DNA of 64,000 nt from a phage, in the NCBI GenBank assembly GCA_025829515.1, contig GCA_025829515.1_4865.1; one strand, 5' to 3'. Position 1 is the first letter of the stretch. Every line of letters starts with the position of its first letter. This document shows positions 1,646-62,848 of the stretch, one piece after another. Below the pieces are notes generated by a model that was not told where the DNA came from, ran no database searches, and saw only the letters and a list, made by a program, of their open reading frames with translations. Both the position numbers and the translations under genes were made by a program.

Positions 1646-1669
1646 ACAGATAGATGTCATCTTAGTGAG
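1646..1669 (+). promoter_or_regulatory. putative phage promoter motif copy (acagatagatgtcatcttagtgag)
   Basis: Intergenic copy of the conserved motif family cAGAtAGATaTTAtC...GTGAG, upstream of gene 1760. Confidence 0.4.
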
Positions 1670-1759
1670 CATTGTGTATAAACCCACAGTCGCTTAAACA
1701 CCAACTGTTCTTTAGTAACAGTTTTTGGTCACTTTAGTGTACTTTAAAGGAAATACCGA

Positions 1760-2998
1760 ATGTATAACGAATACGAATTAGTTTACCAGACACCGAAAGA
1801 AGCATTCTTTAATGCAGTAATTACTAACTCAATTGTACTGTTGGGAATGCAGTTCAGTGTTCGGAGTATGGCTTACAGCGATGTAACGTGGCAGGATTGT
1901 GCGTACCTGCCACAAAAGCTCTCAACCGTTGTCGAAAAGCGGCTGCTTGACAAAGGGGAAGTAAAGTGCCGTTTAGGCCACCACGTCTCTGACTTAGCGC
2001 CGTGGGTTGAGTTAACCATGACGTTCGAAGGGGATTCGCGGGTAGTTTACCTATCAGGTAATCAAAACATCGGACGCGCCATTGCTGAGGGTAACACAAT
2101 GTGGGTGCACTACATTCTTACTCTGCTGACCGGTAAACCGGTGTTCGAGTTAACACCTGACATGCCGGCACTAAGCGATAGCAATTGGTGGACTGGCGGA
2201 GAGCTGAATACAGGGTTTAATGAGAAATTACAAAACTTTAATTCAGAGCGACTCGATGTTGATGCGGAAGTGTTGGTGCAGCAGTTCCCCGAATTCACTG
2301 CGTACCAAATTACTACCGTATGGAATAGAGCGGTAAGCAAGCGCAGATTCTACACAAAAAATGCACCGCGTGAAGCAGCCAAACCTGTGGAAATTGACGA
2401 AGACACCAAAGAAGCACTGCGTGATCTAGCCACCATAGCCAATGATGGCAATACGATGTTCTGGACATCTGATGAAAACGCTAACCGTTATTTCGGTGAG
2501 ATGTTAGACGCCGATGTTTGGTCAGTAATGCCGATAGCAGAGCCTGGAAACCTTAAAGATTACTATAAGGTCGAAAAGGATGAGGTGGTTAATGAGAAAG
2601 TCGTCGCTCTTCTTGCTGTTTTCCGCGAAGTTATCCAGTCAGAAATACTGTTAAGCATCTATAAACGCAAGACCCCGGCCAGTGAAAATGACACGGCGTG
2701 GGTATTTGACTGTCGACCAACAAATACAACATCGCCCGCGTTCTGGATACAGGTGTCAGGAACGCTGCAGCGCGTGAACAGTTCCGTTGTTTCTCGCCTG
2801 CCGGATTCTGAAATGCGCTCCGTTGCCGAACCTGCTTATTTGATGTCGGCGAAGGCGGTACGGGACGCGTGGGGTACCAGCGAACTGAAACAGTGGCACT
2901 ACGACGCCATCATCAAATGGGGTGTTAACAATGGCTGGAAAGAAGTGACTAAGTACGGCCGTCAACTGTTGTTTGTCGCAGATTTGCGTTTACTGTAA
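1760..2998 (+). CDS. hypothetical protein (412 aa)
   Basis: Long ORF, AAAGGA RBS, followed by intrinsic terminator. Confidence 0.6.
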   Translation: MYNEYELVYQTPKEAFFNAVITNSIVLLGMQFSVRSMAYSDVTWQDCAYLPQKLSTVVEKRLLDKGEVKCRLGHHVSDLAPWVELTMTFEGDSRVVYLSGNQNIGRAIAEGNTMWVHYILTLLTGKPVFELTPDMPALSDSNWWTGGELNTGFNEKLQNFNSERLDVDAEVLVQQFPEFTAYQITTVWNRAVSKRRFYTKNAPREAAKPVEIDEDTKEALRDLATIANDGNTMFWTSDENANRYFGEMLDADVWSVMPIAEPGNLKDYYKVEKDEVVNEKVVALLAVFREVIQSEILLSIYKRKTPASENDTAWVFDCRPTNTTSPAFWIQVSGTLQRVNSSVVSRLPDSEMRSVAEPAYLMSAKAVRDAWGTSELKQWHYDAIIKWGVNNGWKEVTKYGRQLLFVADLRLL

Positions 2999-3008
2999 TC
3001 TCGTCATC

Positions 3009-3037
3009 GGGGGTCTTGTACCCCCTTCTTATTTTTT
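3009..3037 (+). terminator. rho-independent terminator
   Basis: GC hairpin gggggtcttgtaccccc followed by T-run. Confidence 0.6.
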
Positions 3038-3058
3038 AACCGTAAAGAGTATTTAACC

Positions 3059-3640
3059 ATGCCACAACCAATTATTGAACAACATGAAATGAACTACGAA
3101 GAACTGACCCGCCGCTATCGCGTGAAAGCCCCACGGGTAGTAGAAGGTTGCGAGAAATACAAAGAAGCAGACTTCGTGGTATTCCAACGCGAAGGTGTTC
3201 CGATGATGGTGTTCGTAAAACACGTCACCACCGATAACGACGCCCGTCTAGTGATGTTGTATAACGTAATGGCTACCGTACTAGATACCGATATTGGACT
3301 GTTACGTCGTTATAAATCATCCTACGAACAGAAAGCGAAGGTAGTTGCTTTTGACTTACCACGCACGGTACTAGTAGATGGTTCCCGTCCGGCTATTCTT
3401 CGTTTTACGAAAAGCGAAGACGACAGTAACCCAGCGCATATTGTTCAGCCACTAACGCTGTCGCAAGATACGTTACAGCAGAACGGCGGGATGGATTGGC
3501 TAAACGTCATGTTACCGGGCCTAGCTGAAGGTCAGGAATTGCATCTGGTTTGCTACACCCCATCCGTCGAGCACACCTATGCGCGTTACCTTACCGAAGA
3601 ACACGGTTTCCGTAACCACCGCGGTATTTACATTGCGTAA
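3059..3640 (+). CDS. hypothetical protein (193 aa)
   Basis: ORF in tightly packed rightward operon. Confidence 0.55.
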   Translation: MPQPIIEQHEMNYEELTRRYRVKAPRVVEGCEKYKEADFVVFQREGVPMMVFVKHVTTDNDARLVMLYNVMATVLDTDIGLLRRYKSSYEQKAKVVAFDLPRTVLVDGSRPAILRFTKSEDDSNPAHIVQPLTLSQDTLQQNGGMDWLNVMLPGLAEGQELHLVCYTPSVEHTYARYLTEEHGFRNHRGIYIA

Positions 3641-3649
3641 GGTGAATGT

Positions 3650-4213
3650 ATGTTCCGTTTACTAGAAATTCGAAACGATATCTGGCAAGAGCACATCCGC
3701 AACGATCCGGAGTGGGAAGGAGTTGAACGTGATTTACCGGATAACCCCGACCAGCTGCTGGTATTCCTTTATAGCGATAAGGCTAAACAGATCAAGGGGA
3801 TATTTGAACGTAAAACGACAAGCTTGTCGACCTTACTGAGCTGCATTTGCTGCGGCGTCAGTGAGCTTGATCCCAATCTATTCACCAACTATCTTGCGCG
3901 TAAAGTCCGTACACCGCTACTGGAGGTTACACTCCCGCCAGATATTCGTATCAGTAAAACCGTACCGACCGTTTTGCGTTTACAGGATGTGTCTGGTAGT
4001 AGCGACGACGGGGAAACAACGATTACCCTTTCCTCGTCAGAGAGTGAACTCGCAACCGAATCGTTTCTTAGCGAAGTCGAGGCCGGATTAAAGCAGGACG
4101 TAATCGTCTATAATCTCGGCGGTGTGCCCATTGATCCCATTTTACACTTCTTTGAAAGCCAAACCTGCCATCTCGTAGAAAGCTTAACATACCACTTTAA
4201 AGGAGCTTTATGA
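3650..4213 (+). CDS. hypothetical protein (187 aa)
   Basis: ORF, AAGGTGA RBS; stop overlaps next start (ATGA). Confidence 0.55.
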   Translation: MFRLLEIRNDIWQEHIRNDPEWEGVERDLPDNPDQLLVFLYSDKAKQIKGIFERKTTSLSTLLSCICCGVSELDPNLFTNYLARKVRTPLLEVTLPPDIRISKTVPTVLRLQDVSGSSDDGETTITLSSSESELATESFLSEVEAGLKQDVIVYNLGGVPIDPILHFFESQTCHLVESLTYHFKGAL

Positions 4214-4819: not shown

Positions 4820-5407
4820 ATGACAGAACGTATTTTACGACTGCAAGAGAACAGGTTAGAAGACCTGCACGTAATGCGTAGTCGTGGCTTGTTCCCAGTG
4901 GGGCTTGACGTAAGTGGGTTAATAACTTCTGCGCAGCACGGGGACAAGGTCATTACAATGCATTCACGTGGGAACGAAGTGGTCTCTGCGATTTTCATCG
5001 ATAAGGTTATTCCGGACTCGGAAAGTGGTAAGGCGGCGGGACACATCATTTACGAATACTTTCGCAGCATTCTATACGAGGAAAAGATAAACGTCAAAAC
5101 GTTTATGGAATACGCTAAGCGAAATAACTACATCGATGCGCGGCTGATGGTCACGGAAGGCACTCCAACTATAAACGGTAAAGTCCACCATCGTTTACTT
5201 GGAGCACAGTTGCCGAGACTAGGCGAGATACCAACGACGATAGAGCTGCACCAAAAAACAGATTGGCGACACAAAATCGAAGTGCTTCACAAGCTTTACG
5301 ATTTATCGATCGTTCAAATCAAACTGGTGGACTTTACGCCTGCAAATATGCAAATCGCTAAGCGCGCGTTGGGTTTTCGTATTCTTAACACAACCTTCAC
5401 ATTGTAA
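4820..5407 (+). CDS. hypothetical protein (195 aa)
   Basis: ORF; start moved to ATG 4820 which has GAGGTG RBS (track start 4811 is GTG). Confidence 0.55.
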   Translation: MTERILRLQENRLEDLHVMRSRGLFPVGLDVSGLITSAQHGDKVITMHSRGNEVVSAIFIDKVIPDSESGKAAGHIIYEYFRSILYEEKINVKTFMEYAKRNNYIDARLMVTEGTPTINGKVHHRLLGAQLPRLGEIPTTIELHQKTDWRHKIEVLHKLYDLSIVQIKLVDFTPANMQIAKRALGFRILNTTFTL

Positions 5408-5412
5408 AATAT

Positions 5413-5437
5413 CTCAGATATATATTACCTAGGTGAG
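5413..5437 (+). promoter_or_regulatory. putative phage promoter motif copy (ctcagatatatattacctaggtgag)
   Basis: Contains TATATTAC; near-identical to copy at 62824-62848. Confidence 0.5.
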
Positions 5438-5457
5438 AGTTAAGAGATTAACTCAAT

Positions 5458-5487
5458 GGCTACCTTCGGGTAGCCTATTCTTTTTTA
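5458..5487 (+). terminator. rho-independent terminator-like hairpin
   Basis: ggctaccttcgggtagcc hairpin + T-run; lies downstream of motif copy and upstream of gene 5512. Confidence 0.5.
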
Positions 5488-5511
5488 AACCAATCGACTA
5501 TAGAGCAAAAC

Positions 5512-5913
5512 ATGACTATCAAGAAGTTCTTACAAACAGTAGTAGTTCTGGCCGCATGTGGTATCGCAGCAACTTATGCTTTCGATAAGCCAGACGTGAC
5601 TGAATACACATCAGCTGATTCGGATTATGGCATTGCGCCGAATGAAAAACCGGAACTGATGCGTGAGGTCGAACAGTTACAAATCTACAGACTGACGGAC
5701 GGTAAGAACTGCACAGGGCTGGTTATCGCTGATAAGAAATTGAAAATGTATCAGCGGTTAATCGACATATCGTGCAATCAACCAAAAGTCACCTCGGTCA
5801 GTGTATCGCCACTGGAATTACCGAATTTGGTTGCTGTGAGCTTTTATCACAACGATGTGCTCGTCGGTCGCATCACCCTCAATCGTGGAGATATCAAAAA
5901 TGAAATGCAATAA
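5512..5913 (+). CDS. putative lipoprotein (133 aa)
   Basis: N-terminal signal peptide with lipobox-like LAAC; first of four consecutive signal-peptide ORFs. Confidence 0.5.
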   Translation: MTIKKFLQTVVVLAACGIAATYAFDKPDVTEYTSADSDYGIAPNEKPELMREVEQLQIYRLTDGKNCTGLVIADKKLKMYQRLIDISCNQPKVTSVSVSPLELPNLVAVSFYHNDVLVGRITLNRGDIKNEMQ

Positions 5914-6837: not shown

Positions 6838-7221
6838 ATGCGTGGATTTATGGGTATTATCGCGGCGGTGTTCTTGACCGCTTCTGCTTCAGCTACAACC
6901 AGCGTAGAAGATTTACTGCCAGGCACACCGTATCAGTACAACCCGCCTTCATTCGAAGTCTGTACTGGCGACGATGGCAGATGTGAAGAAGTCAGCCGTC
7001 ACGACGAGTATATCCTGGTCCACGCAAAGGGCGAGGAAACTTGTCCGGCTGGTTACTACTTCTTGTTGAACTCAAAGGCACAAGAGATTGTGCCGGTAGA
7101 GACAATAACGTGCGACCCGACGCTTCGCGCGTCGCTCGCTTACAATACGAAAACCAAACAACGCCTCCTGGTTATTGAACAGCAAGGGGTGGTGCGTGGT
7201 TCAGTAGCGCTCGACCAGTAA
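6838..7221 (+). CDS. putative secreted Cys-containing protein (127 aa)
   Basis: Signal peptide; AAGGA RBS. Confidence 0.5.
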   Translation: MRGFMGIIAAVFLTASASATTSVEDLLPGTPYQYNPPSFEVCTGDDGRCEEVSRHDEYILVHAKGEETCPAGYYFLLNSKAQEIVPVETITCDPTLRASLAYNTKTKQRLLVIEQQGVVRGSVALDQ

Positions 7222-7232
7222 CCGAAAAGTTT

Positions 7233-7255
7233 TCAGACAGATGTTATAACGTGAG
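7233..7255 (+). promoter_or_regulatory. putative phage promoter motif copy (tcagacagatgttataacgtgag)
   Basis: Intergenic copy of conserved motif upstream of gene 7351. Confidence 0.4.
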
Positions 7256-7350
7256 ATGACGACCCATCTCACTTTGGCCCTGCGGTGATTTCCCCAACAC
7301 TTAGCCGCAGGGTCCTTTTTAATCGACTATTACTCGTAAGGATTAAGCAA

Positions 7351-7851
7351 ATGAACATGAACATTCTCGACGATACCCGTTCTTCTTTCTTTACTCAGAT
7401 GAACGTCAATCCCGAACGTACCCGTGCCATTCTTTCCACTGGCTGGAAGTTAAAGCTGTTAGGCGAGTTAACCCTAAACCGCACCGACTGGCCAGAAGAA
7501 GCGACCGTATTGATTAACAGCATTCACAGCGAGTGGCTAGATGCTGCGTTGAATGCCCCACAACTACGTCCGTACTATCGGATGCTTCATGCGGGTTATG
7601 AAGTATACCGCAAAGGTTGGTACGCTGCAGCCACTTATTGCAAAACCCCTGAAGGTCGTGAAGACAACACTGTCGACCACGTATTAGTAAACAATTTCTG
7701 GGGCGACCAAATCGAAGTCTTACAACTTTCCACCGGTGACCGTATTCCGGCCTGTGAGTTATTCGAAACTAACGCACAAATGTACGAACCATATGCAATG
7801 ATTCGTGGCCGTAAGGTCCCAATCATTTCCCTTATGCATATGGGGCTGTAA
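7351..7851 (+). CDS. hypothetical protein (166 aa)
   Basis: Start placed at ATG 7351 with AAGGA RBS; followed by terminator. Confidence 0.5.
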   Translation: MNMNILDDTRSSFFTQMNVNPERTRAILSTGWKLKLLGELTLNRTDWPEEATVLINSIHSEWLDAALNAPQLRPYYRMLHAGYEVYRKGWYAAATYCKTPEGREDNTVDHVLVNNFWGDQIEVLQLSTGDRIPACELFETNAQMYEPYAMIRGRKVPIISLMHMGL

Positions 7852-13725: not shown

Positions 13726-14176
13726 CGCGCCTGAGCGCTTCAAGGTCGTTACAGTTAACTGCGTTGGTGCAATGGGAAGGGGCATTGCCTTGGCGTGCCG
13801 AGAACGCTTCCCATCGCTTTATAATGACTATCGCCAGAAATGCCGTAAAGAGCAAATCGTTATCGGTGAGGTCTATTGTTATCCTGAGGAAGGGGTAATA
13901 CTCCTTCCTACTAAAACCCATTTTCGCTATAAATCGCAGATTTACTATGTCACGTCCGGCATTGATGCGCTGGCGCGACTAGGGGAAGACTTAGAAGGAG
14001 GGATTGCGATACCACCCCTAGGGATGGCTAACGGTTGGTTACGTTACCATGAGCGATTGGAAATCTTTATACACTTACAGAAACGACTACAGCACACGGA
14101 GCAGACTTATCGATTCTATTTACCGGACACCTTGCTGAGGGAAGCAGAGAAAATCATCCCAAATAGTTTCAAATAG
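13676..14176 (+). CDS. macro-domain (ADP-ribose binding/processing) protein (166 aa)
   Basis: VVTVNCVGAMGRGIALAC and GIAIPPLGMANGW resemble macro-domain Gly-rich loop and second conserved loop. Confidence 0.55.
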   Translation: MSLELIDEAVISHDLFNAPERFKVVTVNCVGAMGRGIALACRERFPSLYNDYRQKCRKEQIVIGEVYCYPEEGVILLPTKTHFRYKSQIYYVTSGIDALARLGEDLEGGIAIPPLGMANGWLRYHERLEIFIHLQKRLQHTEQTYRFYLPDTLLREAEKIIPNSFK

Positions 14177-14191
14177 ATATTATCATCAGGG
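14171..14191 (+). promoter_or_regulatory. putative phage promoter motif copy (aaatagatattatcatcaggg)
   Basis: Conserved motif copy upstream of gene 14276. Confidence 0.45.
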
Positions 14192-14275
14192 CACATTACA
14201 AAGGAGCACAATGCCGTCCGCGCCGTCTTCCCGGATTGGGAACGGAAAAGTATAAATCCGTTTGGAGATACATCC

Positions 14276-17106: not shown

Positions 17107-17157
17107 AAAAAATAAAAGCCTACCTACTCCCTTGGGAGTAGGTAGTTCTTTTTTTCT
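17107..17157. terminator. bidirectional intrinsic terminator
   Basis: A-run, hairpin cctacctactcccttgggagtaggtag, T-run; between convergent genes. Confidence 0.65.
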
Positions 17158-20255: not shown

Positions 20256-20276
20256 GTGATATATAATCTCGTGGAG
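20256..20276 (+). promoter_or_regulatory. putative phage promoter motif copy (gtgatatataatctcgtggag)
   Basis: Divergent copy of motif family upstream of gene 20284. Confidence 0.35.
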
Positions 20277-20283
20277 AGTTGAA

Positions 20284-22518: not shown

Positions 22519-23259
22519 ATGTTGCGAGTCGTGAGTGAATCGCTCACGCTCCACACACAAAGTCTGATTAACTGTGTGGAGCAATACGGATGGATGTCGT
22601 GGATGGCAACGAACCGTGAGTTTGGTGCTGCGCCCATGGAAGATTACGACGTGTTGTACAAGTGGGGATTTGAAGCGGCTTGTGATGTTGTGGCAGAGCT
22701 GGTTACCGAAACAATTGCGCGTTACAACGCAAGATGTGATGAACCGATGCCTAAACAAGTCCCGCCGCAAATACCTCCGCTACCGACAATCGATCGTGAG
22801 CATTGTCGAATCTGGACAATGGAAGAGTTGTACGACGAACACGTTAGAATGCTGAAACCGAACGAGCTAATAACCGGTGCGTTGAACTGGTTCTTACATC
22901 GGTTCTGGACAGAGTTGGTCGATGTGGCGGGTGACGAAGATAATTGTTCTCAGGTTATTTGGTACGATCGAGCGATGTTTCATCGCAGTCTTAAAGATCG
23001 TAGTCTCTGCAACCTGTATATTGTTGACCCGTGTGAAGACATTGTAAAGGTAGCAGAAGGTAACTCTTATTCCGACTTGGTGATGCCCGTGGTAGAAAAA
23101 CCGATGGGTATTTTCCTGCAGGGAGACGCTTGGGTTTTAACGGATGATATCTCGGGCTACCTGCTGGACCCGGATGACATTCACTCGGACGAACCTGATA
23201 CCATCGAGTATTTTCACTTTACAGAACAGGCAGCACGCTTCTTGCATCTCTTAAAGTAA
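22519..23259 (+). CDS. hypothetical protein (246 aa)
   Basis: ATG 22519 with GAGGTG RBS immediately after previous stop. Confidence 0.55.
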   Translation: MLRVVSESLTLHTQSLINCVEQYGWMSWMATNREFGAAPMEDYDVLYKWGFEAACDVVAELVTETIARYNARCDEPMPKQVPPQIPPLPTIDREHCRIWTMEELYDEHVRMLKPNELITGALNWFLHRFWTELVDVAGDEDNCSQVIWYDRAMFHRSLKDRSLCNLYIVDPCEDIVKVAEGNSYSDLVMPVVEKPMGIFLQGDAWVLTDDISGYLLDPDDIHSDEPDTIEYFHFTEQAARFLHLLK

Positions 23260-23260
23260 T

Positions 23261-23285
23261 CTGAGATAGATATTATCTACAGGGA
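23261..23285 (+). promoter_or_regulatory. putative phage promoter motif copy (ctgagatagatattatctacaggga)
   Basis: Conserved motif copy upstream of gene 23313. Confidence 0.5.
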
Positions 23286-28716: not shown

Positions 28717-28992
28717 ATGCGTTATCAGAAAGATATTGTAGAGCGTCTGTGTCTGGGTCTCGCTGGTATTAGCCAGGAACTTAGCACCGCGTTCCATAAC
28801 GAGTTCTCAGCACCGCGACATGCACTGTCTGAATTTAGTCATCAGGTAAATGCCCATTACGGCAACCTGATTAATGATAAACCGAAGGTTGATGCGGTCG
28901 GTGTGCCTGAACACAATGAAGATATCCCGTACTGGATTGAAGACCTGGAACGTGTGGTTCTTCCAGTGCTCCGTGAGAGGATGAAAAAATGA
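28717..28992 (+). CDS. hypothetical protein (91 aa)
   Basis: GAGG RBS. Confidence 0.5.
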   Translation: MRYQKDIVERLCLGLAGISQELSTAFHNEFSAPRHALSEFSHQVNAHYGNLINDKPKVDAVGVPEHNEDIPYWIEDLERVVLPVLRERMKK

Positions 28993-29657
28993 GATTAGAC
29001 CCGGCACGGCGAAAAAAAGCAGAAGCTTATGCTTTACAGTTACTGAACTTAGTTGACCCGACCGGGATTAACGCGGAAGCTGCCAAGCGCGCTTTCTCAC
29101 GAATGTCTGACGAAGAGTTCAATCGTCTGCGCGAAGGGTTGCCTGTTTACAACCCAACTGGTGGCAAGGTCAAAATTGACCATATGCGCAATATTAAAAT
29201 TTGCGAAGCGATGGGACTGAACTTGTGTCAGCGCCTGTGGCTCACGGAACCGAAAACCGGTATCCTACAGCGTACCCGTTACCCCCATTTAGTCTTCCGG
29301 CTACCTGCACGTCGCCAGACGCAGATGCAAGAGAAGAAAATGGCGGTGGCGAAGAACGATAAAGTCCGCGATAAACTCTCGGGTCAGGTAGTAGGGCCTT
29401 CCAAAGCTTCGGGTGTTTCGTTTCCAGAAGCGTACATCATGTACTCGGATGGACACGACTCAACGCTCCAGGAGTTCCTGTGGGCGCGTGGTGGTAACGA
29501 TACGTTACAACGTGCGTTCTATCAATCGCTACGGCAAACCGGTAAAGGTCGCATCAACCTGGAAGGGGCTGAGCGTACCAGTTCAAAAGCGCCGCGTACA
29601 TGGTCTTCGTACTTTAAAGCAATGCACATCGGTAACAACTTAGGACGCCCGGAATGA
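28989..29657 (+). CDS. hypothetical protein (222 aa)
   Basis: ATGA overlap. Confidence 0.55.
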   Translation: MRLDPARRKKAEAYALQLLNLVDPTGINAEAAKRAFSRMSDEEFNRLREGLPVYNPTGGKVKIDHMRNIKICEAMGLNLCQRLWLTEPKTGILQRTRYPHLVFRLPARRQTQMQEKKMAVAKNDKVRDKLSGQVVGPSKASGVSFPEAYIMYSDGHDSTLQEFLWARGGNDTLQRAFYQSLRQTGKGRINLEGAERTSSKAPRTWSSYFKAMHIGNNLGRPE

Positions 29658-30382
29658 GATTAGGACGCCGTTTCTTAGTCGATATCGACACAATCTTCGA
29701 TACACGAATTGGTTGGGCGAAAGTGCTGCAGCCTGATGTATTAGAGAAGCTTGATTTAGAAGTGTATCGGATGCGGTTCACAGATGCGTGGGCCGAAGTG
29801 GTAGGAATTCAGGACTGGAATAAAAAGTTCGCGGAGCGTGATAAACGCGCGTTGCAGAACGCGCAGCCAACAGAAATGTTGCTTACGCTAAAGAACGAAG
29901 TACAGGCAATGTTAATGACGATACAGATGCACGCTCCTATTGAGCGACCTGTCTTAACGTTTAACCTGTGGCCATACGCTGATCTCGATGATGAAGAACG
30001 TCATGCGTTTTTGGAAGAACTGCGTTACTACTATAACGAAGTGCAAGTAGACGTCGTTGTTATTCCTCACAGCGATCTTACACCAGGACGACTTGCTTCT
30101 GCATGGGACGGTTGGATAATGTACGATTGGTATCCGTGGATAGAACAACACGCGAACCATTTCCAGAAACCGATTCCGGATTTCACCATTACCCGACCGA
30201 GTATGCTGACCAGCGAATTAACGGAAGAAGCCATCGCGCAAATAAAAAGAGATAAGGTGAACCCCTTTAAGGAGTCCACCCGTTTTCTTGCTCAATACGT
30301 CGGTACTGACGTAAAGGACACTGCGCTGTTTAGTCTTCGTCGTCATCAGCAGGACGACGACTCGCAAACGCAGACGCCATGA
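29654..30382 (+). CDS. hypothetical protein (242 aa)
   Basis: ATGA overlap. Confidence 0.55.
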   Translation: MRLGRRFLVDIDTIFDTRIGWAKVLQPDVLEKLDLEVYRMRFTDAWAEVVGIQDWNKKFAERDKRALQNAQPTEMLLTLKNEVQAMLMTIQMHAPIERPVLTFNLWPYADLDDEERHAFLEELRYYYNEVQVDVVVIPHSDLTPGRLASAWDGWIMYDWYPWIEQHANHFQKPIPDFTITRPSMLTSELTEEAIAQIKRDKVNPFKESTRFLAQYVGTDVKDTALFSLRRHQQDDDSQTQTP

Positions 30383-30800
30383 TCTGGTCAACGTCAATCT
30401 TTTCGCCTACTGGTGCCAACTCACCTTCTTTCGGAGGCCGTACTGCGGCAATCTGTGGGACGGTGGGTTGGTATCCATTATTTAAATCTTCTTCATCGTC
30501 GTGACGTTTGATACCAACGCCAGCACGGGTCATTAAGAAGCCGTTTAAACTGTTGGCCAAATCTTGAGTCGCCTCAGCGCCTTTCTCAGCAGCTTTAATT
30601 TTCCGCTTCGTCATGACCTGTTTGTCGATGCCGTTGATTAGGCGTTCGATTCGGTCGACGGCTTTTAAGTCTTTGTGTACTTCACCGTCGTTCACCATAT
30701 CTGTGACGAGCTTAACGCGTAGCTGTTGTGTTTGGCGGAGAAGCGAATCTTCGTTGTCCACATCTCCGTCGAACGCTTGGTATTTCACTTCTTCGCTCAT
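30330..30800 (-). CDS. hypothetical acidic protein (156 aa)
   Basis: Minus-strand ORF, convergent with upstream gene, divergent from 30877. Confidence 0.5.
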   Translation of the reverse strand: MSEEVKYQAFDGDVDNEDSLLRQTQQLRVKLVTDMVNDGEVHKDLKAVDRIERLINGIDKQVMTKRKIKAAEKGAEATQDLANSLNGFLMTRAGVGIKRHDDEEDLNNGYQPTVPQIAAVRPPKEGELAPVGEKIDVDQIMASAFASRRPADDDED

Positions 30801-30824
30801 GGGATAACCTCATCTCAAAAAGAA

Positions 30825-30849
30825 CTCAGACAGATATTATCTATCCGAG
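30825..30849 (+). promoter_or_regulatory. putative phage promoter motif copy (ctcagacagatattatctatccgag)
   Basis: Conserved motif copy in divergent intergenic region, oriented toward gene 30877. Confidence 0.5.
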
Positions 30850-30876
30850 ACAACATCTCATAATAGGATAACACCT

Positions 30877-39760: not shown

Positions 39761-40240
39761 ATGTCTATAACTCGGATCGATTATCGTGCCGTAGTAAAAG
39801 AACTGTCCAAAGGTCTTATCGAACTGGACTCCGATGAAGCCCGCAGCTGTGGCTTCCTGCCACACATTGCACTGAGTGAGTTCCGTACCATCCGTTACGG
39901 TGCCGGTCGTCAGAAGGGCGTTACAACACACACCGTTGATATGTCAGCAAAGTTCCACGGCAGCGTTCTGTATCTGGTCCACAATGAATCGTTACGAAAC
40001 GAAGTAGTGGAGAAGTTCCATGAAAAGGCCGCCGGGAACGGTTGGTTGACCGTACACTGTAACTACTTGCCTGAGGGTTGGAAACGCGCGACGGGTGCTG
40101 GTATATCCGGCTACGAGAAATTCGGCTTGGTTATTGTCGACGAAGCGGGTTTCTTCTTCAACAAGTTCAGTTACGATAAAATCTATCGCAGTCTGGTCGA
40201 CGTAGTAACGCCAGACGTTGTGATACACCTGATTAATTAA
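39761..40240 (+). CDS. hypothetical protein with Walker B-like motif (159 aa)
   Basis: LVIVDEAGFF resembles Walker B/DEAD box; no canonical Walker A. Confidence 0.45.
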   Translation: MSITRIDYRAVVKELSKGLIELDSDEARSCGFLPHIALSEFRTIRYGAGRQKGVTTHTVDMSAKFHGSVLYLVHNESLRNEVVEKFHEKAAGNGWLTVHCNYLPEGWKRATGAGISGYEKFGLVIVDEAGFFFNKFSYDKIYRSLVDVVTPDVVIHLIN

Positions 40241-51910: not shown

Positions 51911-53524
51911 GTGAGAAAGCTTAACTGGGTAGATTTTTATCTACTGAACGTTAATAAGTCCCTGGTGTCGCATTTAAAACCAGTTACAACAACAGACACC
52001 TTTCAGGGACTGACGAAAAACTTTCACCCTGAAGGACTGTATTCAACCGAAATTTTTGGCCTCACAGGGAGCGAAGCACGAGACTCAACGTTCTCGTACA
52101 TTGATATCAAACTGGATATCATTTCGCCGACCGTTTGTTTGGCATTGTTCCAGCTGAAACAGCTGTACGAAGAAATCTGTTCCGGGAAGCGATTCGCTAT
52201 CTGGAATGAGAAAGAAAAAGATTTCGAGCCGGCTCTGCCCAGTGATAAAGGTGCAGACACCGGCTTCAACTTCTTCCTACGCTACTACGAACAACTGACA
52301 CCGGGACGCAACGAATCGATGCGTCGCGACGAGACAGTCGATTTCTTCAATAAGTTCCGTCCGGTCAGTCTCAGCCGCTATGTGCTGGTTCTGCCTGCGG
52401 GATTACGTGATTTGGTCATTCGTCAGGATGGCCGCGACCAAGAAGAAGAGATTGGCGGACTCTACCGCCGTCTGATTTCTCTGGCACGTGCAATCCCCGA
52501 CCGCAGTACGCGAACGGAACTGACTGACCCGGTTCGCTGGAAGCTCCAACAAACCTTTAATGATATCTGGATGTACTTCTTCAACATCCAAGACGGTAAA
52601 GGTGGTTTTGCACGTCGTAAAGTGACGTCACGTAAGTTAATGAACGGTACGCGTAACGTACTGTCTTCATTCTCAACCGGTTCCAAGGTCATGGGTCGCG
52701 AAGATGCGATTCGTCCAACGGATACCCGTATCGGTTTGTACCAAACCCTGAAGGCATTACTGCCTGTGGCTCAATACCACATCCGCGAACGTTACCTCAG
52801 TAACATCCGGGCAGGGGACGGCAACTTATACGGCGTTAACACCAAAACACTCAAGCGTGAGTTCCTGGAAGTCTCCGGGCGGGTGTATGACCTTTTCACT
52901 ACCGACGATGGCATCGAAACACTCATCAACAGAATGGAAGCGCGCGAGCTTCGACATAAACCGCTGATGATTGATCCGGACCATTACGTGGCATTAATCT
53001 ACCAGGACAAACGCAGCTTCAAAATCTTCTACGATATTGAAGACCTGCCGGAAGGACGTGACCGTAAGCTTGTCCGCGGACTGAGCTTAGCGGAACTCCT
53101 CTATTTGTCAGGTTACGATATTTGGAATGACTACTTCTCGTTCATCACGCGTTATCCGGTTACGGGACGCGGTTCGACTTACTCCTCGACCATAAGATTG
53201 GAGACCACCACCTCTTCCCTCTATTTGCATGAACTGGAAGACGATTGGGTCACGTTAAAAGAGAAGGGAGCAATTAGCTTCCCTGACCGTACCGTGAAAA
53301 CCTTTGTGGAATCCATGGCACCACATCCATCCCGATTAGGTGGGTTGGGTGGTGACTACGATGGCGACACCGGCTCAGCAAACAGCCCGATGTCAACCGA
53401 AGCGCTCGAGGAAAATCGGAAGTGGGTCAGTTCGAAAAACTACTGGTTTGCAACAGACGGCAGTTTCAAAATCAATCCGGTTAACAACGTGATTAAAAGA
53501 ACGACTGCTGCGCTGTTGAAATGA
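51911..53524 (+). CDS. multisubunit RNA polymerase beta'-like subunit, N-terminal fragment (537 aa)
   Basis: NFHPEGLYSTEIFG, VLPAGLRDLVIRQDGRD...GGLYRRLISLARAI, GKGGFARRKV and DYDGD parallel E. coli RpoC FKPERDGLFCARIFGP, VLPPDLRPLVPLDGGR...DLYRRVINRNNRL, GKQGRFRQNLLGKRV and NADFDGD (from memory). Confidence 0.8.
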   Translation: MRKLNWVDFYLLNVNKSLVSHLKPVTTTDTFQGLTKNFHPEGLYSTEIFGLTGSEARDSTFSYIDIKLDIISPTVCLALFQLKQLYEEICSGKRFAIWNEKEKDFEPALPSDKGADTGFNFFLRYYEQLTPGRNESMRRDETVDFFNKFRPVSLSRYVLVLPAGLRDLVIRQDGRDQEEEIGGLYRRLISLARAIPDRSTRTELTDPVRWKLQQTFNDIWMYFFNIQDGKGGFARRKVTSRKLMNGTRNVLSSFSTGSKVMGREDAIRPTDTRIGLYQTLKALLPVAQYHIRERYLSNIRAGDGNLYGVNTKTLKREFLEVSGRVYDLFTTDDGIETLINRMEARELRHKPLMIDPDHYVALIYQDKRSFKIFYDIEDLPEGRDRKLVRGLSLAELLYLSGYDIWNDYFSFITRYPVTGRGSTYSSTIRLETTTSSLYLHELEDDWVTLKEKGAISFPDRTVKTFVESMAPHPSRLGGLGGDYDGDTGSANSPMSTEALEENRKWVSSKNYWFATDGSFKINPVNNVIKRTTAALLK

Positions 53525-53542
53525 TACCCATAAGGCACATGT

Positions 53543-56500
53543 ATGATTTTTCTGAAACAGTTTAACCAGCGCTTTACCGTGCGCAAGACCGATGAGTTCG
53601 GTCGTCCGCGTATTATCCCGCTGGAGAAGCTCCAGCTCCCACGTGGTTCTATCTACCACACCATCGATTTAGACCAGGTGGTTTTAGCGCCACCGTTAAC
53701 TACACCGTGTTTTGGCCAGCTGGAAAAACCGGCGATGATTCGCCACCACTTCCAGCTGCCTGAAGACGGCATTATTGGCCATCCGCGTAAGAAACCGGTT
53801 GTTGGTCAAGAGCGCCAAATCTTCCAGTACCATCGTAACAACCGTCGTATTCGTCGCATGATTGAAGACGGCGTGGTACGTTCCGATCCGAAAGTGCTGC
53901 TCATCGAAAACTACACCCCGATGCTGCCGCATTATTTCTACCCTGATACTCTGATGTCCTGGTACGAACGTCTGCACAACATTCAGCTGCTGATAACTAA
54001 CCAGATGAAAACTGACTCACGTGAGTACATGCGTCAGAACTACTACATCATCGAACTGGGTAACGTACTGCCTTCTTTCGATCGTTTTAAAATGACGTAT
54101 AACGATCGTGTTAAAACCAAACTGGAGCGCTTTAAAGACTTTAACCTGCTGTGGTTACTGGAGTTGTTCGGTTGGGTGTACGGAGATCAGCAAGCAACAC
54201 TGTTTGACGGTATGGACATGAACCAGCTGTCACGTGTGAACTTTATCTTCACACACAACGGTGGTTTTACATCCATGAACATGGGTGTAATTGAAAGAAT
54301 GCGTAAGTCTGCCGGTGGTCGTTTGACTGACGTGCAGATGGGCAGAATGTTCTACCGTACACTGACTACGGTGATGACCACACCGCCGTCTACCGACTAC
54401 GAAGATGACGAGTTCGTTACACCGGAAGGGGATGAACGCGTACATCTGGGAGAGGACGACGATGCTGTTGAAACCGTTGCCAGTAAACCGGAAGAAAGCC
54501 TCGATATCGTCGACGATGAAGCAACACAAAGCGACAACGTTGACGATACACTGAACGATCATGAGTTCGATGAGAAAGAAGATCTGGTCATCGAAGCGCC
54601 GAAAGAAGATGTCAAACCAACCACCATCGTCGTAGAACGCACCATCCCACACGATGCTGTGATTAAACAGGAAGTTGAGCGCCTGGCAGAAGCGGGCCGC
54701 GTCACCGCCAAAGCGTATCAGTTCCTGAACGAATCTTCTAAACGTTTCGTAAACTTACCCAACCCGTACAATCCTAAAGAGACGTACGGCGAAGGTCTGA
54801 CCATCGATCCGAAGAAACTCGAAGTTAAAGCCGAGCCTAAGAAGATTGAACGCTTAGTTACGGATGAAGCCTGGGCGGAAAATACCACCGACCAAATCAT
54901 TCGTCAGTACAACCAGGAAATCTTCCCGAAAGATATTCTGGGGGCAGTAGCGTCATCCCAACGTCTTGGTTTAGCGATTCACAATCACACTGTTGAGAAA
55001 GAGATTTCCGTTACCGGGAATATCGAACACCACACGTTGCGTATTCAGCCGATTGGCGGAGAACCAACCACGGTACGTTTCTCAATTCCTGCATTAACCG
55101 AAGACGGTACTTGGGTTGCAAATGGTGTGGAATATACAATGCGTCGTCAGCGTGTTGATCTTCCTATCCGTAAAGTGTCCCACGATACTGTAGCGTTAAC
55201 CACTGCCTACGGGAAGAACTTTGTCCGTCGCAGTGATAAAGTCGTCAATGATTACGGACGTTGGCTCACTAACGCGATTATTACTCGCGCGGTCGATCCA
55301 AAGAACACCGAAATCACTGATGCAAAACTGGCGAATGTGTTCGATCCGCTGTCTAAACTGCCGCGCCAATATACCGAAGTGGCGCGTCGTGTAGCAGCGT
55401 TCAACGCAATTGGGTACCAATGGAGCTTTGACATTAAACAGAAAGCGGCATTCTTTAACGAAGGGCAACTGGCAGACGCGGACCGTGTCGAGCTGGTACC
55501 TGTGGCGAAGAAACCGCGGAGCCATGTCATCGTCGGTATGGATAAAAACTCCCAGCTTTATCGAGTGGATAAGGATAAGACCGAACCACTGGGTACACTC
55601 GCCGAGGTCTTTGGCGTGGACACCTCTAAGGCTCCACGTGAAATGACCGAACTGTCACTGATGGGCAAATCAATCTCGCTGGGCTTTGTGTTTGCGTACT
55701 ATCTCGGATTAACCGGGATGTTGAAACACTTTGGTATCAGTTACGAGGTTCTCTCTGTCGGACAACGTATCGATAAAGGTCAGTTCGACTCCATTATTCG
55801 TCTCCAGGATGCGAAAATTGCAATTGTCTGCGAGAACGATCAACAGAGGATGATTGTCAACGGCTTAGACCGTTACATTAAACACTTTACCACGTATACC
55901 GAGTCGGAAGTTGACCGGGAAGACATTTATCTGAACCTGTTACGCGATGCAGATGGGCTAACACCACGCTACATCAAAGAGCTGAAACTGATGCGGACCG
56001 CATTTGTTGACGACATGCACGCGCGTATCCTCAGGAAAATGGGCGAGCCGGAAACCTTTATCGGCTTACTGGAGCGTTCTAACGAACTGCTGCAGACGGA
56101 CCACACGTTACCGGAAATTAACGGTGACGAAATGATGTTCATCGGGAACCAACGTATTTCGTATCACATCTACACCGCGATGGTGCGGGCGATGCGTAAC
56201 TACAACAACGCGCCTAACTCGAATCGTAAGTTTGAGTTGACGCAGGACATGGTGTGGGGTGCAATTAACTCCGACCCGTCTGTTCTGCTGGCACCTGGCG
56301 CAAACCCGGTACAGAACATCAAAGAAAAGGATGTCGTTACCATGGGCGGTACAGGCGGTCGTAACCGCAAAACCATGGTATACAGTACCCGTGAATTCCA
56401 ACCGAGCGACCTGGGGATTGTCTCCGGTAACACGGTCGATAACGGCGACGTAGGTATCACCGCCTTTGCAACAAACAATCCGCGTTACGACACCGTGGAC

Positions 56501-57745
56501 GGCACGACCTTTAAAAAGGACCTCGATAAACTGAAGCCAGGTGAGGCACTGTCATTTATTGATGGCTTAGTGCCGGATACCCTGATGGACGATGCTAAGC
56601 GTCAGAACTTCGTTGGGATTCAATTCGGTTCTGCGACCAGTTGTGTTGGCGCAACCACCACACCGTATCGTACCGAGCAAGAAAAGTTCGTGGCACACCG
56701 TACTTCTGTGAAGCACGCACGCGTAATCGATAAACCTGGCAAGATTGTGGAGGTTCTTAACGACCACGTTAAAATCAAATACGACGGAGAGGAAGAAGCT
56801 TTCCCACTGGGCCGTTGGTTCGGTCCGCACGAAGGGACTTACTACCCACACACCCTGGTAACGAAATGGAAGCGCGGAGATAAACTCCCTGCCGGTGCCG
56901 TTATCACGTACAACGAACAACACTTTGAACCAGACATCTACGATCCAACGCAGGTCAGCTTTAAAAACGGGATACTGGCAACTGTCGCTTTGATTGAAGG
57001 GGAAGAAGTAATTGAGGACTCCAACGCCATTAGTGAGCGGTTCGCTGCTAAGGCTGAAGCCGATGTTACCAAACTCAAAGAAGTCACAATGACGTTTACC
57101 CAGAACCTGTTGGAGATGGTAAAAGAAGGGGACCACGTAGACGTGGATTCAATTCTATGCACCTTCACCGACAACCTGACCGGCGATATGAGCGGGTTCA
57201 GTAAAGAAGCAGCGGAAACGCTGCGTGAGTTAAGCTCCTTTGCACCACGCTCTGGTGTTCGTGGGTTTATCGACAAAATCGAAGTGGTTTACCACGGCGA
57301 GGTGGAAGATATGACCCCGTCTTTGGCGGAGATGGTTCGTAAATACGACCGTATACGTCGGAAGACTGCGCTGGCTCTCAAACGTGACGAGCCGAAGGAC
57401 GGTCGAGTCAACGGTGATTTTCGTGTTGAGGGGGTGCCGTTAGCGTACAATAGCCTGTGTGTCCGATTCTACATCACACACCGGGTAGAGATGGCAGCAG
57501 CGGATAAGATGGTTATTGCTAACCAGCTGAAAACGACGGTTCAGGAAGTGATGTATGGAACCAACAAAACGGAAGACGGGCAGGAACTCGACATTATCTT
57601 TGGTCGTGATTCCGTCGACGCACGTATCGTAGGTTCTATCATGCGCATCGGAACCACCAACGCTGTCGGGTATCGTGGTGGGGAGAATATCGGACGCATC
57701 TTAGATGGTGAAGACGTCCCAGCCTTGCCGGCTAAAATCAACTAA
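53543..57745 (+). CDS. multisubunit RNA polymerase beta-like subunit (1400 aa), lacking extreme C-terminal beta region
   Basis: GTWVANGVEYT, REFQPSDLGIVSGNTVDNGDVGITAF, ADKMVIANQLKTTV and EDGQELDIIFGRDSVDARIVGSIM parallel RpoB [46 protein letters not shown] and [25 protein letters not shown] (from memory). Confidence 0.7.
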   Translation: MIFLKQFNQRFTVRKTDEFGRPRIIPLEKLQLPRGSIYHTIDLDQVVLAPPLTTPCFGQLEKPAMIRHHFQLPEDGIIGHPRKKPVVGQERQIFQYHRNNRRIRRMIEDGVVRSDPKVLLIENYTPMLPHYFYPDTLMSWYERLHNIQLLITNQMKTDSREYMRQNYYIIELGNVLPSFDRFKMTYNDRVKTKLERFKDFNLLWLLELFGWVYGDQQATLFDGMDMNQLSRVNFIFTHNGGFTSMNMGVIERMRKSAGGRLTDVQMGRMFYRTLTTVMTTPPSTDYEDDEFVTPEGDERVHLGEDDDAVETVASKPEESLDIVDDEATQSDNVDDTLNDHEFDEKEDLVIEAPKEDVKPTTIVVERTIPHDAVIKQEVERLAEAGRVTAKAYQFLNESSKRFVNLPNPYNPKETYGEGLTIDPKKLEVKAEPKKIERLVTDEAWAENTTDQIIRQYNQEIFPKDILGAVASSQRLGLAIHNHTVEKEISVTGNIEHHTLRIQPIGGEPTTVRFSIPALTEDGTWVANGVEYTMRRQRVDLPIRKVSHDTVALTTAYGKNFVRRSDKVVNDYGRWLTNAIITRAVDPKNTEITDAKLANVFDPLSKLPRQYTEVARRVAAFNAIGYQWSFDIKQKAAFFNEGQLADADRVELVPVAKKPRSHVIVGMDKNSQLYRVDKDKTEPLGTLAEVFGVDTSKAPREMTELSLMGKSISLGFVFAYYLGLTGMLKHFGISYEVLSVGQRIDKGQFDSIIRLQDAKIAIVCENDQQRMIVNGLDRYIKHFTTYTESEVDREDIYLNLLRDADGLTPRYIKELKLMRTAFVDDMHARILRKMGEPETFIGLLERSNELLQTDHTLPEINGDEMMFIGNQRISYHIYTAMVRAMRNYNNAPNSNRKFELTQDMVWGAINSDPSVLLAPGANPVQNIKEKDVVTMGGTGGRNRKTMVYSTREFQPSDLGIVSGNTVDNGDVGITAFATNNPRYDTVDGTTFKKDLDKLKPGEALSFIDGLVPDTLMDDAKRQNFVGIQFGSATSCVGATTTPYRTEQEKFVAHRTSVKHARVIDKPGKIVEVLNDHVKIKYDGEEEAFPLGRWFGPHEGTYYPHTLVTKWKRGDKLPAGAVITYNEQHFEPDIYDPTQVSFKNGILATVALIEGEEVIEDSNAISERFAAKAEADVTKLKEVTMTFTQNLLEMVKEGDHVDVDSILCTFTDNLTGDMSGFSKEAAETLRELSSFAPRSGVRGFIDKIEVVYHGEVEDMTPSLAEMVRKYDRIRRKTALALKRDEPKDGRVNGDFRVEGVPLAYNSLCVRFYITHRVEMAAADKMVIANQLKTTVQEVMYGTNKTEDGQELDIIFGRDSVDARIVGSIMRIGTTNAVGYRGGENIGRILDGEDVPALPAKIN

Positions 57746-59567: not shown

Positions 59568-60296
59568 GTGGTCGTGAGCGCCATTGAAACAGCACGTCGT
59601 GACGCGACGAAAATTCATGCAGATTTAGTGGACCAAGGCACGGCCACCATCACCAAAGGGGGATGTTATATTTACATCCCTGTTGGCTTCGTGGCTAAAG
59701 AGCTGGCGGTAATTTCTTCGCAAGTCGAAATCGTCGGCATTTTCGCTATCTCCACTGACCGCAAAACCTACGGGGTATCGAACGTCACGACGTTCATTGA
59801 AATTACCCCGTCGGCGTTTGAGGAAATTGATGTTCAGGGCGTGCCGTATTACGAGTTCCGTTTTGACCCCGGCACGGTGGTGTTCCCCAACCGAATGCTG
59901 CAAGTGCTCTCCTCGCCAGTCTACAACATCGCTTCGTACATCTACGACTTCGGAAACCGGCCTTTCTGGTACACCGCAGTAGATGACGCTGAGCTATTGT
60001 CTGACACTAAGACGTGGAACGGCTTTACGGTCTTTAACGACCAGATCACCGCTGACTGTTATGCTGCCCACACACAGCGTAAGGTTGGCGACCCGCGGAC
60101 GTATTTCCGCTACACCCTGAAAAAAGACAGCGATTTGATGAATCGGGTGCGGTTTATTCCGCTGCGTTCAGGTTCATTGAACAAAACTTCCCGGTTGGCC
60201 AAGATTGCAGATGTGGAACTGAAACAGGGTATCCGTTCTGCACTCCAGGTCGATCCGGTACGTGCAGAGCCACTCGAGGATTTGTATATGAGGTAA
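59568..60296 (+). CDS. hypothetical protein (242 aa)
   Basis: AGAGAGG RBS; GTG start at 59568 or 59574. Confidence 0.55.
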   Translation: MVVSAIETARRDATKIHADLVDQGTATITKGGCYIYIPVGFVAKELAVISSQVEIVGIFAISTDRKTYGVSNVTTFIEITPSAFEEIDVQGVPYYEFRFDPGTVVFPNRMLQVLSSPVYNIASYIYDFGNRPFWYTAVDDAELLSDTKTWNGFTVFNDQITADCYAAHTQRKVGDPRTYFRYTLKKDSDLMNRVRFIPLRSGSLNKTSRLAKIADVELKQGIRSALQVDPVRAEPLEDLYMR

Positions 60297-60358
60297 CTGA
60301 GGTAGGGTTATTGTACGTCCCCAATAACCCGCTTCGGTAATAACAACTGGGGAAACCA

Positions 60359-61162: not shown

Positions 61163-61165
61163 AAA

Positions 61166-61795: not shown

Positions 61796-61850
61796 TGCCT
61801 AGTTCGTGGTCTGCAAATCACAACTAAAAACCACTACAGTAGGGGGACGC

Positions 61851-62150
61851 ATGAAGGTCGTTAACATCGCAATACCTCCGACCCTTCGTTGTTTGACGCC
61901 GGAAGAACTGAAAGCGTTAGCGATCTACGCCATCCAAGGAAAGGCTGGTAAGGAAGTGCTTGCCGAAATCTTATCGGAACGTTTTGATACAAAACGCAAG
62001 GTTAATAACATTATCTCCGGAATCGCGTCGCTAGATATCATGGCACTCTATTGCGACATTAAAGAGGCTGGAGTGACAATCGACTATCGCCGTACTTACT
62101 TTCTACTCACTGAGCCATATCGTTCGAATATGGCAATAAAGCAGATGTAA
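61851..62150 (+). CDS. hypothetical protein (99 aa)
   Basis: ATG 61851 with AGGGGGA RBS. Confidence 0.5.
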   Translation: MKVVNIAIPPTLRCLTPEELKALAIYAIQGKAGKEVLAEILSERFDTKRKVNNIISGIASLDIMALYCDIKEAGVTIDYRRTYFLLTEPYRSNMAIKQM

Positions 62151-62203
62151 TTTTTTACATGACGTTGGTTTCATGTGTTGGGGAACAAAATAAGGACAAG
62201 AAA

Positions 62204-62752
62204 ATGTTTTATCTGGATAGCGATGGCGTTTTTGCACGCTGGCGTAAATACGTTTTATCCACACATTTTCCCGGAATGACGATTAAAGAGTTTAACGCAT
62301 TACCTGAACTCCGCCGTCGTAGTTTGGTTCGTTCGATGTATCAGAACGATCCTGACCTGTTTTACAAACTCGAACCAATTGAGGGTGTAGAGCGAATCCT
62401 GGAAACGGTAGATAGACTTTGCGACAGTTGGGCAATACTCACCTCTGGGTCAGAAGATCACTACGACCACCAATTGGTTGTGGATTCAAAACAACGGTGG
62501 TTCATGAAACACTTTGGGGTACCAGCTGACAAAGTCATCGTCACCGAAAGTTCAGGGCAGAAGAAAGCTTACGCCTCGCGAGGTAATTTGCTTGTCGACG
62601 ATTATGGTCGTAACTGTCGAGAATGGATTTTGCAAGGTGGCGCGGCAATATGGTCGCGAACTGAAGAACCGAACATTGATGGCATTTGCCTCCAGTGTGA
62701 AGCGTTCTACAATGACCCGATTAGTCACTCGGGGACACTACTGCAAGTCTAA
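62204..62752 (+). CDS. HAD-like 5'(3')-deoxyribonucleotidase-family protein (182 aa)
   Basis: N-terminal YLDSDGVFARW resembles HAD/NT5C motif I (DxDGV); AAGGA RBS. Confidence 0.45.
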   Translation: MFYLDSDGVFARWRKYVLSTHFPGMTIKEFNALPELRRRSLVRSMYQNDPDLFYKLEPIEGVERILETVDRLCDSWAILTSGSEDHYDHQLVVDSKQRWFMKHFGVPADKVIVTESSGQKKAYASRGNLLVDDYGRNCREWILQGGAAIWSRTEEPNIDGICLQCEAFYNDPISHSGTLLQV

Positions 62753-62761
62753 ACTCCACTA

Positions 62762-62798
62762 GGCTCATCCTATCTTCGGATACGGGTGAGCCTTTTTA
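62762..62798 (+). terminator. rho-independent terminator
   Basis: ggctcatcctatcttcggatacgggtgagcc hairpin + T-run. Confidence 0.6.
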
Positions 62799-62823
62799 AT
62801 TTATTAATTGCATTCAAAAAGAA

Positions 62824-62848
62824 CTGAGATATATATTACTTAGGTGAG
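62824..62848 (+). promoter_or_regulatory. putative phage promoter motif copy (ctgagatatatattacttaggtgag)
   Basis: Contains TATATTAC; 23/25 identical to copy at 5413-5437; upstream of gene 62899. Confidence 0.5.

Follow-up and report, generated by a model that had tools for sequence, protein, structure and literature searches.

Seven co-oriented copies of a 37-nt element as probable early promoters of the virion RNA polymerase in an SPN3US-like jumbo phage

Which polymerase reads the AT-rich motif that recurs ahead of rightward genes in a stretch of phage DNA of 64,000 nucleotides (contig GCA_025829515.1_4865.1)? In the following, "the window" means this whole stretch. An earlier note listed eight intergenic copies of the motif and proposed that they are early promoters of the phage's own virion RNA polymerase. 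The window has a G+C content of 48% and matches the genome of Salmonella phage SPN3US from ~160.3 to ~224.3 kb. The identity comparison covered its first 20 kb and one internal segment of 7.5 kb, which share 97-98.5% identity with jumbo phages of Salmonella in the SPN3US group (Seoulvirus), and judged from this likeness the window is DNA of an SPN3US-like giant Salmonella phage of the Chimalliviridae type. Seven of the copies are very probably early promoters of this phage, read by an injected multisubunit virion RNA polymerase (vRNAP).

These seven members share a long block once they are aligned on the 9-mer AGATATTAT or variants of it. Their cores are located at 1652, 5420, 7239, 14175, 23268, 30832 and 62831, on the + strand throughout and 30-97 nt ahead of + genes, and they score 19.8-29.5 bits with a 20-nt matrix that was built from the aligned window copies and refined on SPN3US. 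No other + strand site in the window reaches 8 bits with this matrix. Matches on the - strand are limited to 30842, where the near-palindromic copy at 30832 is read in reverse, and a 15-bit site in coding DNA at 40184. Matches of at least 12 bits number nine, compared with a mean of 0.37 and a maximum of three in 200 simulated windows (Markov-1). The sequences of all eight listed copies are present where they had been placed, but the one at 20256 does not belong with the others. This sequence (20256-20280, + strand) scores 1.9 bits, ends ~8 nt from a ribosome-binding site and is kept within Seoulvirus only, not in the Erwinia and Cronobacter relatives. It holds a perfect TATAAT ~15 nt ahead of the ribosome-binding site of an exonuclease gene (20284).

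The whole SPN3US genome, with 264 annotated genes, served as the reference for genome-wide counts. At a threshold of at least 19.8 bits it contains 24 copies, all of them on the + strand, and matches of at least 19 bits on the - strand are only reverse readings of palindromic + copies. Intergenic DNA makes up 6.4% of the genome and yet holds 22 of the 24 copies; one of the other two lies at a stop codon and one inside a gene. A + start codon follows 23 copies at a distance of 41-150 nt and the intragenic copy at 276 nt. The earlier note had said that a similar frequency inside genes and on the two strands would speak against its proposal, and this strand and coding test thus favours the finding. 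A count of strand-specific 8-mers that is independent of the list of copies leads to the same words: the most intergenic-enriched 8-mers of SPN3US fall into three classes (terminator tails with CTTCGG hairpins, ribosome-binding sites and motif words), and the motif words include ATATATTA, AGATAGAT, ATATTATC and GATATTAT, whose reverse complements occur zero to one time each in intergenic DNA. The intragenic copy is located outside the window, at SPN3US 25230 (L003), 276 nt before the next gene, and occupies the same place in Erwinia phage Asesino (25976, L013); its conservation in sequence suggests a real internal promoter.

The consensus given in the earlier note holds as the core of the element, but the element is longer than was described. 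In the SPN3US copies it spans ~37 nt, from about -34 to +3, where +1 is the conserved G 7 nt past TTAT or TTAC. The upstream part consists of A-34, T-32 and C-31, then A-29 (24/24 copies) and A-28, followed by an A-rich stretch. The middle part is T-23, T-22, T-21, C-20, A-19, G-18 and A-17 (TTTCAGA, -23 to -17), with T-16 and A-15, and leads into the core part, which reads G/T-14, A-13, T-12, A/G-11, T-10, T-9, A-8, T/C-7, C/T-6 and T-5. Within the core, A-13, T-12, T-10 and A-8 are invariant in all 24 copies and T-9 is present in 23, giving ATATTAT or ATATTAC. The downstream part comprises G-2, T-1, G+1 and A+2, and G+1, the predicted start 6 nt past the conserved block, is a G in 23/24 copies. 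G+1 and the -29 block lie outside the 20-nt matrix, so their conservation is independent support. The copies form two sub-types, CAGATAGATATTATCT and the nearly invariant CAGATATATATTACYTAGGTGAG, the latter represented in the window by 5420 and 62831. These two, entered in the earlier note at 5413 and 62824, are indeed identical at 23 of 25 positions and both contain TATATTAC.

This anatomy is that of the early promoters of Pseudomonas phage phiKZ. In the first 50 kb of phiKZ, to which the comparison was limited, TATATTAC occurs seven times, always on the + strand ahead of a + gene and always followed by N6 and then G, which bears out the AT-rich phiKZ early consensus that the earlier note had mentioned. 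A separate 37-nt matrix, derived from SPN3US copies only, gives 33.6 bits to the gp54 promoter of phiKZ and 26.5 bits to another site, against a null maximum of 19.3. Early promoters of phiKZ have been mapped, and gp54 has a primary start site that carries the early motif (PMC8244752). The early promoters of phiKZ and 201phi2-1 are conserved at -10, -20 and -30 (PMC11512511). The likeness extends to a TATATTAC or ATATTAT block ending at -7, N6 to a G start, a T-rich block near -22 and an A-rich block near -29, and to the placement, which is intergenic, co-oriented and ahead of genes for small hypothetical proteins and the non-virion polymerase (PMC8244752, PMC11512511). The differences are that two sub-types occur here, that the strongly conserved CAGATAG at -20 to -14 has TTAAACAG or TGAGATT as its counterpart in phiKZ, that the core is partly dyad-symmetric here, and that the start sites here are predicted from sequence. 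Bacillus phage AR9 has the same form, with a ATATATTAT block and a 6-nt spacing to the G start; AAATATATATTAT-N6-G+1 is its early consensus, for which start sites have been mapped, and the reader is a multisubunit polymerase packaged in the virion (PMC5312081). AR9 differs in having uracil DNA and no phage nucleus, is only distantly related and diverges in the upstream part of the promoter. According to a review, every jumbo phage that encodes RNA polymerases has a motif of this sort that can be found ahead of its early operons (PMC7598289).

An AT-rich block ahead of a gene may also be a promoter of the host, and the copies could be sigma70 promoters of the -10-only or UP-element-assisted kind, with TATTAT or TATATT as the -10 and the upstream A-tract acting like an UP element. 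TATTAT agrees with TATAAT at five of six positions, the conserved G is spaced as a sigma70 start would be, and the upstream region is A/T-rich. Even so, this explanation is highly improbable. As the earlier note had observed, no -35 stands at the right spacing: in none of the seven copies is one found at 16-18 nt, no + strand -35/-10 pair is called at any of them, and a TG extension is absent. Nor does the window contain an excess of sigma70-like matches (25, 21 and 14 found, where shuffles lead one to expect 27, 27 and 18). The strongest conservation falls outside the positions that sigma70 reads, namely on CAGATAG at -20 to -14 and on G+1, and T-7 is missing from the TATATTAC type when it is read in the TATTAC register. 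In addition, the same architecture is found in phages of Salmonella, Erwinia, Cronobacter and Pseudomonas and in Bacillus phage AR9, and so follows the phage polymerase and not the host (PMC5312081), and early transcription in phiKZ and AR9 is independent of the host polymerase (PMC7598289).

The partial symmetry of the core (AGATA-T-TATCT) raises the possibility of an operator for a dimeric DNA-binding protein of phage or host, or of a hairpin promoter of the N4 style. On average 6.8 of 12 pairs around T-10 are symmetric, compared with 3.0 at random positions, and the copy at 30832 is a near-palindrome of 25 nt. However, permutation of the right arms among the copies leaves the symmetry where it was (6.79 vs 6.79), which means that the arms do not co-vary within a copy and that the symmetry belongs to the consensus alone. 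Neither the TATATTAC type nor the phiKZ promoters show the inner symmetry, the flanks are asymmetric, every copy is directed at its downstream gene, and reverse readings have an A at the invariant T-10, all of which makes an operator or hairpin promoter extremely unlikely. As a separate matter, the reverse reading of 30832 (23 bits) would start 27 nt before the minus-strand gene 30330-30800, and strong reverse scores in SPN3US belong to three of six copies in divergent regions vs one of 18 elsewhere. Bidirectional use of the palindromic copies is counted against by the A at T-10 and by the reverse reading falling below threshold in the Erwinia phages Asesino and Caitlin.

Conservation was followed in syntenic regions of SPAsTU, of Asesino and Caitlin, and of Cronobacter phage CR5. 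SPAsTU, Asesino and Caitlin each have the copies at 14175, 23268 and 30832 in the orthologous intergenic location, within intergenic sequence that has diverged; those at 23268 and 30832 have weaker counterparts in CR5 (18.3 bits for 30832). Copies 1652, 5420 and 62831 are kept in Asesino, and in the first 100 kb of SPN3US all 13 copies, the intragenic one included, have an Asesino counterpart. An exact 22-mer of the TATATTAC type occurs 38 times in IMG/VR, on 14 contigs (13 of 107-246 kb and one 7-kb fragment), most of which carry several copies, co-oriented within each contig.

The genes behind the copies bear on the identity of the reading enzyme. In SPN3US no first gene behind a copy has a virion-protein annotation, and nearly all of these genes encode small hypothetical proteins. 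All four genes of the non-virion RNA polymerase (nvRNAP), gp23, gp34, gp35 and gp77, are first or second behind a copy, and none of the five vRNAP genes stands directly behind one. The nvRNAP genes were identified from the literature (PMC5105663), from weak Pfam matches to RNA polymerase domains in gp23, gp34 and gp35, of which only gp34 attains the curated cut-off, and from one match to phiKZ gp55. Four of the five vRNAP subunit genes lie in the window by PHROG matches, all on the + strand: homologs of SPN3US gp240 and gp241 at 51911-57745 (phrog_2986 and phrog_3148, "RNA polymerase beta subunit"), a homolog of gp244, the proposed C-terminal beta' piece, at 59568-60296 (phrog_2926; PMC5105663), and a homolog of gp218, the C-terminal beta piece, at 28989-29657 (phrog_3233; PMC5105663). 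The products of these four genes in SPN3US are head-associated, and for gp240 and gp241 mass spectrometry showed the virion location (PMC5105663). Between 30832 and 62831, a span that includes the gp240 and gp241 homologs, there is no + strand match to the matrix. Copies ahead of nvRNAP but not vRNAP genes follow the logic expected of a cascade, in which the injected enzyme yields the second one. The gene behind SPN3US copies 15618 and 15711 was considered as a nuclear-shell protein gene (as phiKZ gp54), and BLASTP, tblastn, Pfam and PDB sequence searches returned nothing significant for it; next to this gene, only nvRNAP beta' homology is confirmed.

It is very unlikely that the copies are instead promoters of the nvRNAP itself, of the middle or late class, or that both phage polymerases use them, although some AR9 genes carry early promoters as well as late ones (PMC5312081) and some nvRNAP genes of 201phi2-1 have middle promoters (PMC11512511). 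Known nvRNAP promoters are short or weak, TATG in phiKZ and AACA-N6-TA/G in AR9, and phiKZ middle promoters have an AT-rich or TACT element at about -22 to -24 (PMC7598289, PMC8244752). The known nvRNAP motifs cannot be found by bioinformatic means, whereas the motif described here fits the long, strongly conserved early class position by position. Moreover, no copy precedes an annotated virion-protein gene, and the presence of nvRNAP genes behind the motif requires that another enzyme reads it first.

The assignment to vRNAP implies a sequence of events. Packaged in the head, vRNAP would enter the cell with the phage DNA and, possibly together with a co-injected factor, read the ~37-nt element, starting RNA at the conserved G, 7 nt past TTAT or TTAC. 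Each copy would head an operon of small non-structural genes, and copies elsewhere in the genome would head the nvRNAP operons, after which nvRNAP would take over middle and late transcription. The features that define the class in sequence are all found: genes of a packaged vRNAP, the -10 block, the -20 and -30 blocks, and intergenic, co-oriented placement before nvRNAP operons. As all tests of sequence gave the outcome expected of early promoters, the window copies have every sequence-level feature of the vRNAP class, and the proposal of early promoters for the phage virion polymerase is supported, every available test agreeing with it.

Several points weigh against this assignment. Literature searches turned up neither transcript data nor mapped starts or timing for the SPN3US group, so that "early" and "read by vRNAP" are designations based on homology and gene logic. 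The sites used to train the 20-nt matrix are the same as those it scores. Because 231 of the 264 SPN3US genes are on the + strand, co-orientation is modest evidence alone (~0.04 by chance). The copy at 14175 stands before a gene for an SLT transglycosylase, a function that is not obviously early. One mismatch can inactivate an early promoter of AR9 (PMC5312081), and deviant copies may be weak or silent, namely 1652, with C at -9, and 7239, with an altered downstream part and G spacing.

The element belongs to a known promoter class, that of phiKZ and AR9, and leaves current understanding unchanged. It has probably already been noted bioinformatically for the SPN3US group; literature searches with the exact consensus strings returned only unrelated primer sequences. 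The copies nevertheless map, at the level of sequence, the likely early transcription units of a phage of the SPN3US type, and SPN3US is the genetic model for the giant nucleus-forming phages of enterobacteria. An early architecture common to Pseudomonas phage phiKZ and to Salmonella and Erwinia phages (-10 block, TTT at -22, AA at -29 and a G start) helps to define the recognition target of the virion polymerase, an enzyme as yet poorly characterised. The consensus, together with the predicted starts, can guide transcript mapping, the annotation of early genes and the design of orthogonal expression parts.

The individual copies, given here from -34 to +3 and all on the + strand, differ in strength and in context. 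Copy 1 (1633-1669; 24.2 bits) has the core AGATGTCAT at 1652, a predicted start at G 1667 and a 93-nt leader to the ATG at 1760, and its Asesino ortholog is located at L011:4914. Copy 2 (5401-5437; core 5420; 28.4 bits) is of the TATATTAC type, with a predicted start at G 5435 and a 77-nt leader to the ATG at 5512; the orthologous copy in Asesino (L011:8037) stands ahead of a different gene. Copy 3 (7220-7256; 19.8 bits), with the core AGATGTTAT at 7239, is the weakest. Its predicted start is 7253 +/- 1, the G spacing being one off, and the ATG is at 7351; no Asesino ortholog of at least 10 bits was found for it.

Copy 4 (14156-14192; core 14175; 26.4 bits) overlaps the final codons of the preceding open reading frame and has a predicted start at G 14190, ahead of the SLT transglycosylase gene (14276; SLT domain match). 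The 86-nt leader of this gene (14190-14275) is unusually well conserved among SPAsTU, Asesino and Caitlin (77% mean column identity) and contains long invariant blocks, but it has no significant fold (z = 0.03); at the corresponding position in SPN3US, RefSeq annotates a minus-strand open reading frame of 43 codons. Copy 5 (23249-23285; core 23268; 29.5 bits) has a predicted start at G 23283 and a 30-nt leader to the ATG at 23313. The leader of copy 6 (30813-30849; core 30832) is also 30 nt long, from G 30847 to the ATG at 30877. This copy is located in a divergent intergenic region, scores 27.5 bits on the + strand and 23.0 bits in the reverse reading, and between 30825 and 30849 forms a near-perfect 25-nt palindrome with 10 of 12 symmetric pairs, counted at SPN3US 191606. 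Copy 7 (62812-62848; core 62831; 23.6 bits), again of the TATATTAC type, has a predicted start at G 62846 and a 53-nt leader to the ATG at 62899, and the terminator of the upstream operon sits just ahead of it. Its Asesino ortholog (L012:5944) has a different but still pairing 5' stem.

Stems of this kind are frequent at the predicted starts. A perfect hairpin of 6-9 bp opens nine of the 24 predicted SPN3US transcripts at +1 to +3, compared with 2.6% of random positions (p ~6e-9); the hairpins were counted by script, and in the MAFFT alignment the leader stems are not in register. Stem-loops that begin at the predicted start or no more than two bases from it are located in the window at 5437-5454, 7252-7271, 62846-62866, 1667-1695 (bulged) and 30847-30859. 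The stems differ in sequence between paralogs and orthologs while the pairing is kept: the stem at 62846 is GAGCGTTA/TAACGCTT and that of Asesino GAGATTA/TAATCTT, and another pair reads GATAGA/TCTATC in SPN3US and GAGAGA/TCTCTC in Asesino. Hairpins that begin at +1 and change in sequence with their pairing kept fit a transcript start at the conserved G. The +1 stem-loop probably protects the 5' end of the transcript. In view of 5'-end-dependent decay, the hairpins also fit a protective 5' stem-loop. An Rfam scan of the window identified no known RNA family.

Two leaders have a further structure. That of copy 2 (5437-5487, + strand) consists of a 7-bp stem-loop at +3 to +20 and then a terminator hairpin, GGCTACC-TTCG-GGTAGCC (5458-5475), with a T-run to 5487 that is listed by the terminator scan. 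The hairpin thus lies downstream and not upstream of the promoter copy, as the earlier note had described, and the minimum free energy of the leader (-20 kcal/mol, z = -3.2) makes its suggestion of a structured leader or attenuation a reasonable one. The leader of copy 3 (7252-7322, + strand) has a 5' stem-loop followed by an 11-bp hairpin (7276-7314) and TCCTTTTT, with a minimum free energy of -32.1 kcal/mol (z = -4.1). At both copies 13-18 nt separate the promoter from the end of the upstream gene (5407 for copy 2), a gene that has no terminator of its own, and the terminator-type hairpin with its T-run stands between start and gene. These leader terminators (5458-5487 and 7276-7322) probably serve the upstream operon. 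They may also attenuate the promoter's own transcripts, and the outcome may be short RNAs of ~50 and ~70 nt or attenuation. In 201phi2-1, start sites directly followed by termination sites give rise to small RNAs derived from the 5' untranslated region (PMC11512511).

The leaders also contain a conserved box, (T)AATCGACTAT(TA), located in the window at 5492-5501, 7321-7330, 62868-62877 and 63747-63756, the last of these with no promoter copy upstream. The box stands ~19-30 nt (mostly 27-30) before start codons and precedes the ribosome-binding site by ~10 nt. On the + strand of SPN3US it occurs in 10 intergenic copies, nine of them 18-83 nt (mostly 38-47) past a promoter core, and the box is also present in Erwinia phage Asesino.

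A tentative and rather doubtful extension is that the TATATTAC-type copies are regulatory cassettes of ~90 nt, each made up of a vRNAP promoter, a +1 stem-loop, the AATCGACTAT box and a ribosome-binding site. The box could then be an undescribed cis-element, whether it is bound by an RNA-binding or processing factor, enhances translation or serves as a second promoter, and the cassettes that contain a terminator (5420 and 7239) would give short early RNAs of ~50-70 nt or work as attenuators that a phage antiterminator relieves. This cassette structure is the only part that may be new. As repeated units of ~90 nt with promoter, variable stem-loop, conserved box and ribosome-binding site, the TATATTAC-type copies resemble the PeSLs of T4-like phages, composite promoter/stem-loop repeats that flank variable early genes (PMC2839356, PMC4122927), and by analogy the cassettes might drive module shuffling. 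The promoters in T4-type PeSLs, by contrast, are sigma70 promoters.

Terminator-like hairpins are common in the window beyond these leaders. Between positions 1 and 40000 intrinsic-terminator-like hairpins occur at ~2x the shuffle expectation, many of them with a CTTCGG loop; examples are located at 3009, 4746, 7858, 8543, 15594, 17120, 20199, 28674 and 35085. All 15 occurrences of CCTTCGGG on the + strand of SPN3US are intergenic. The hairpin at 17120-17145 lies between convergent genes and has a terminator reading on both strands.

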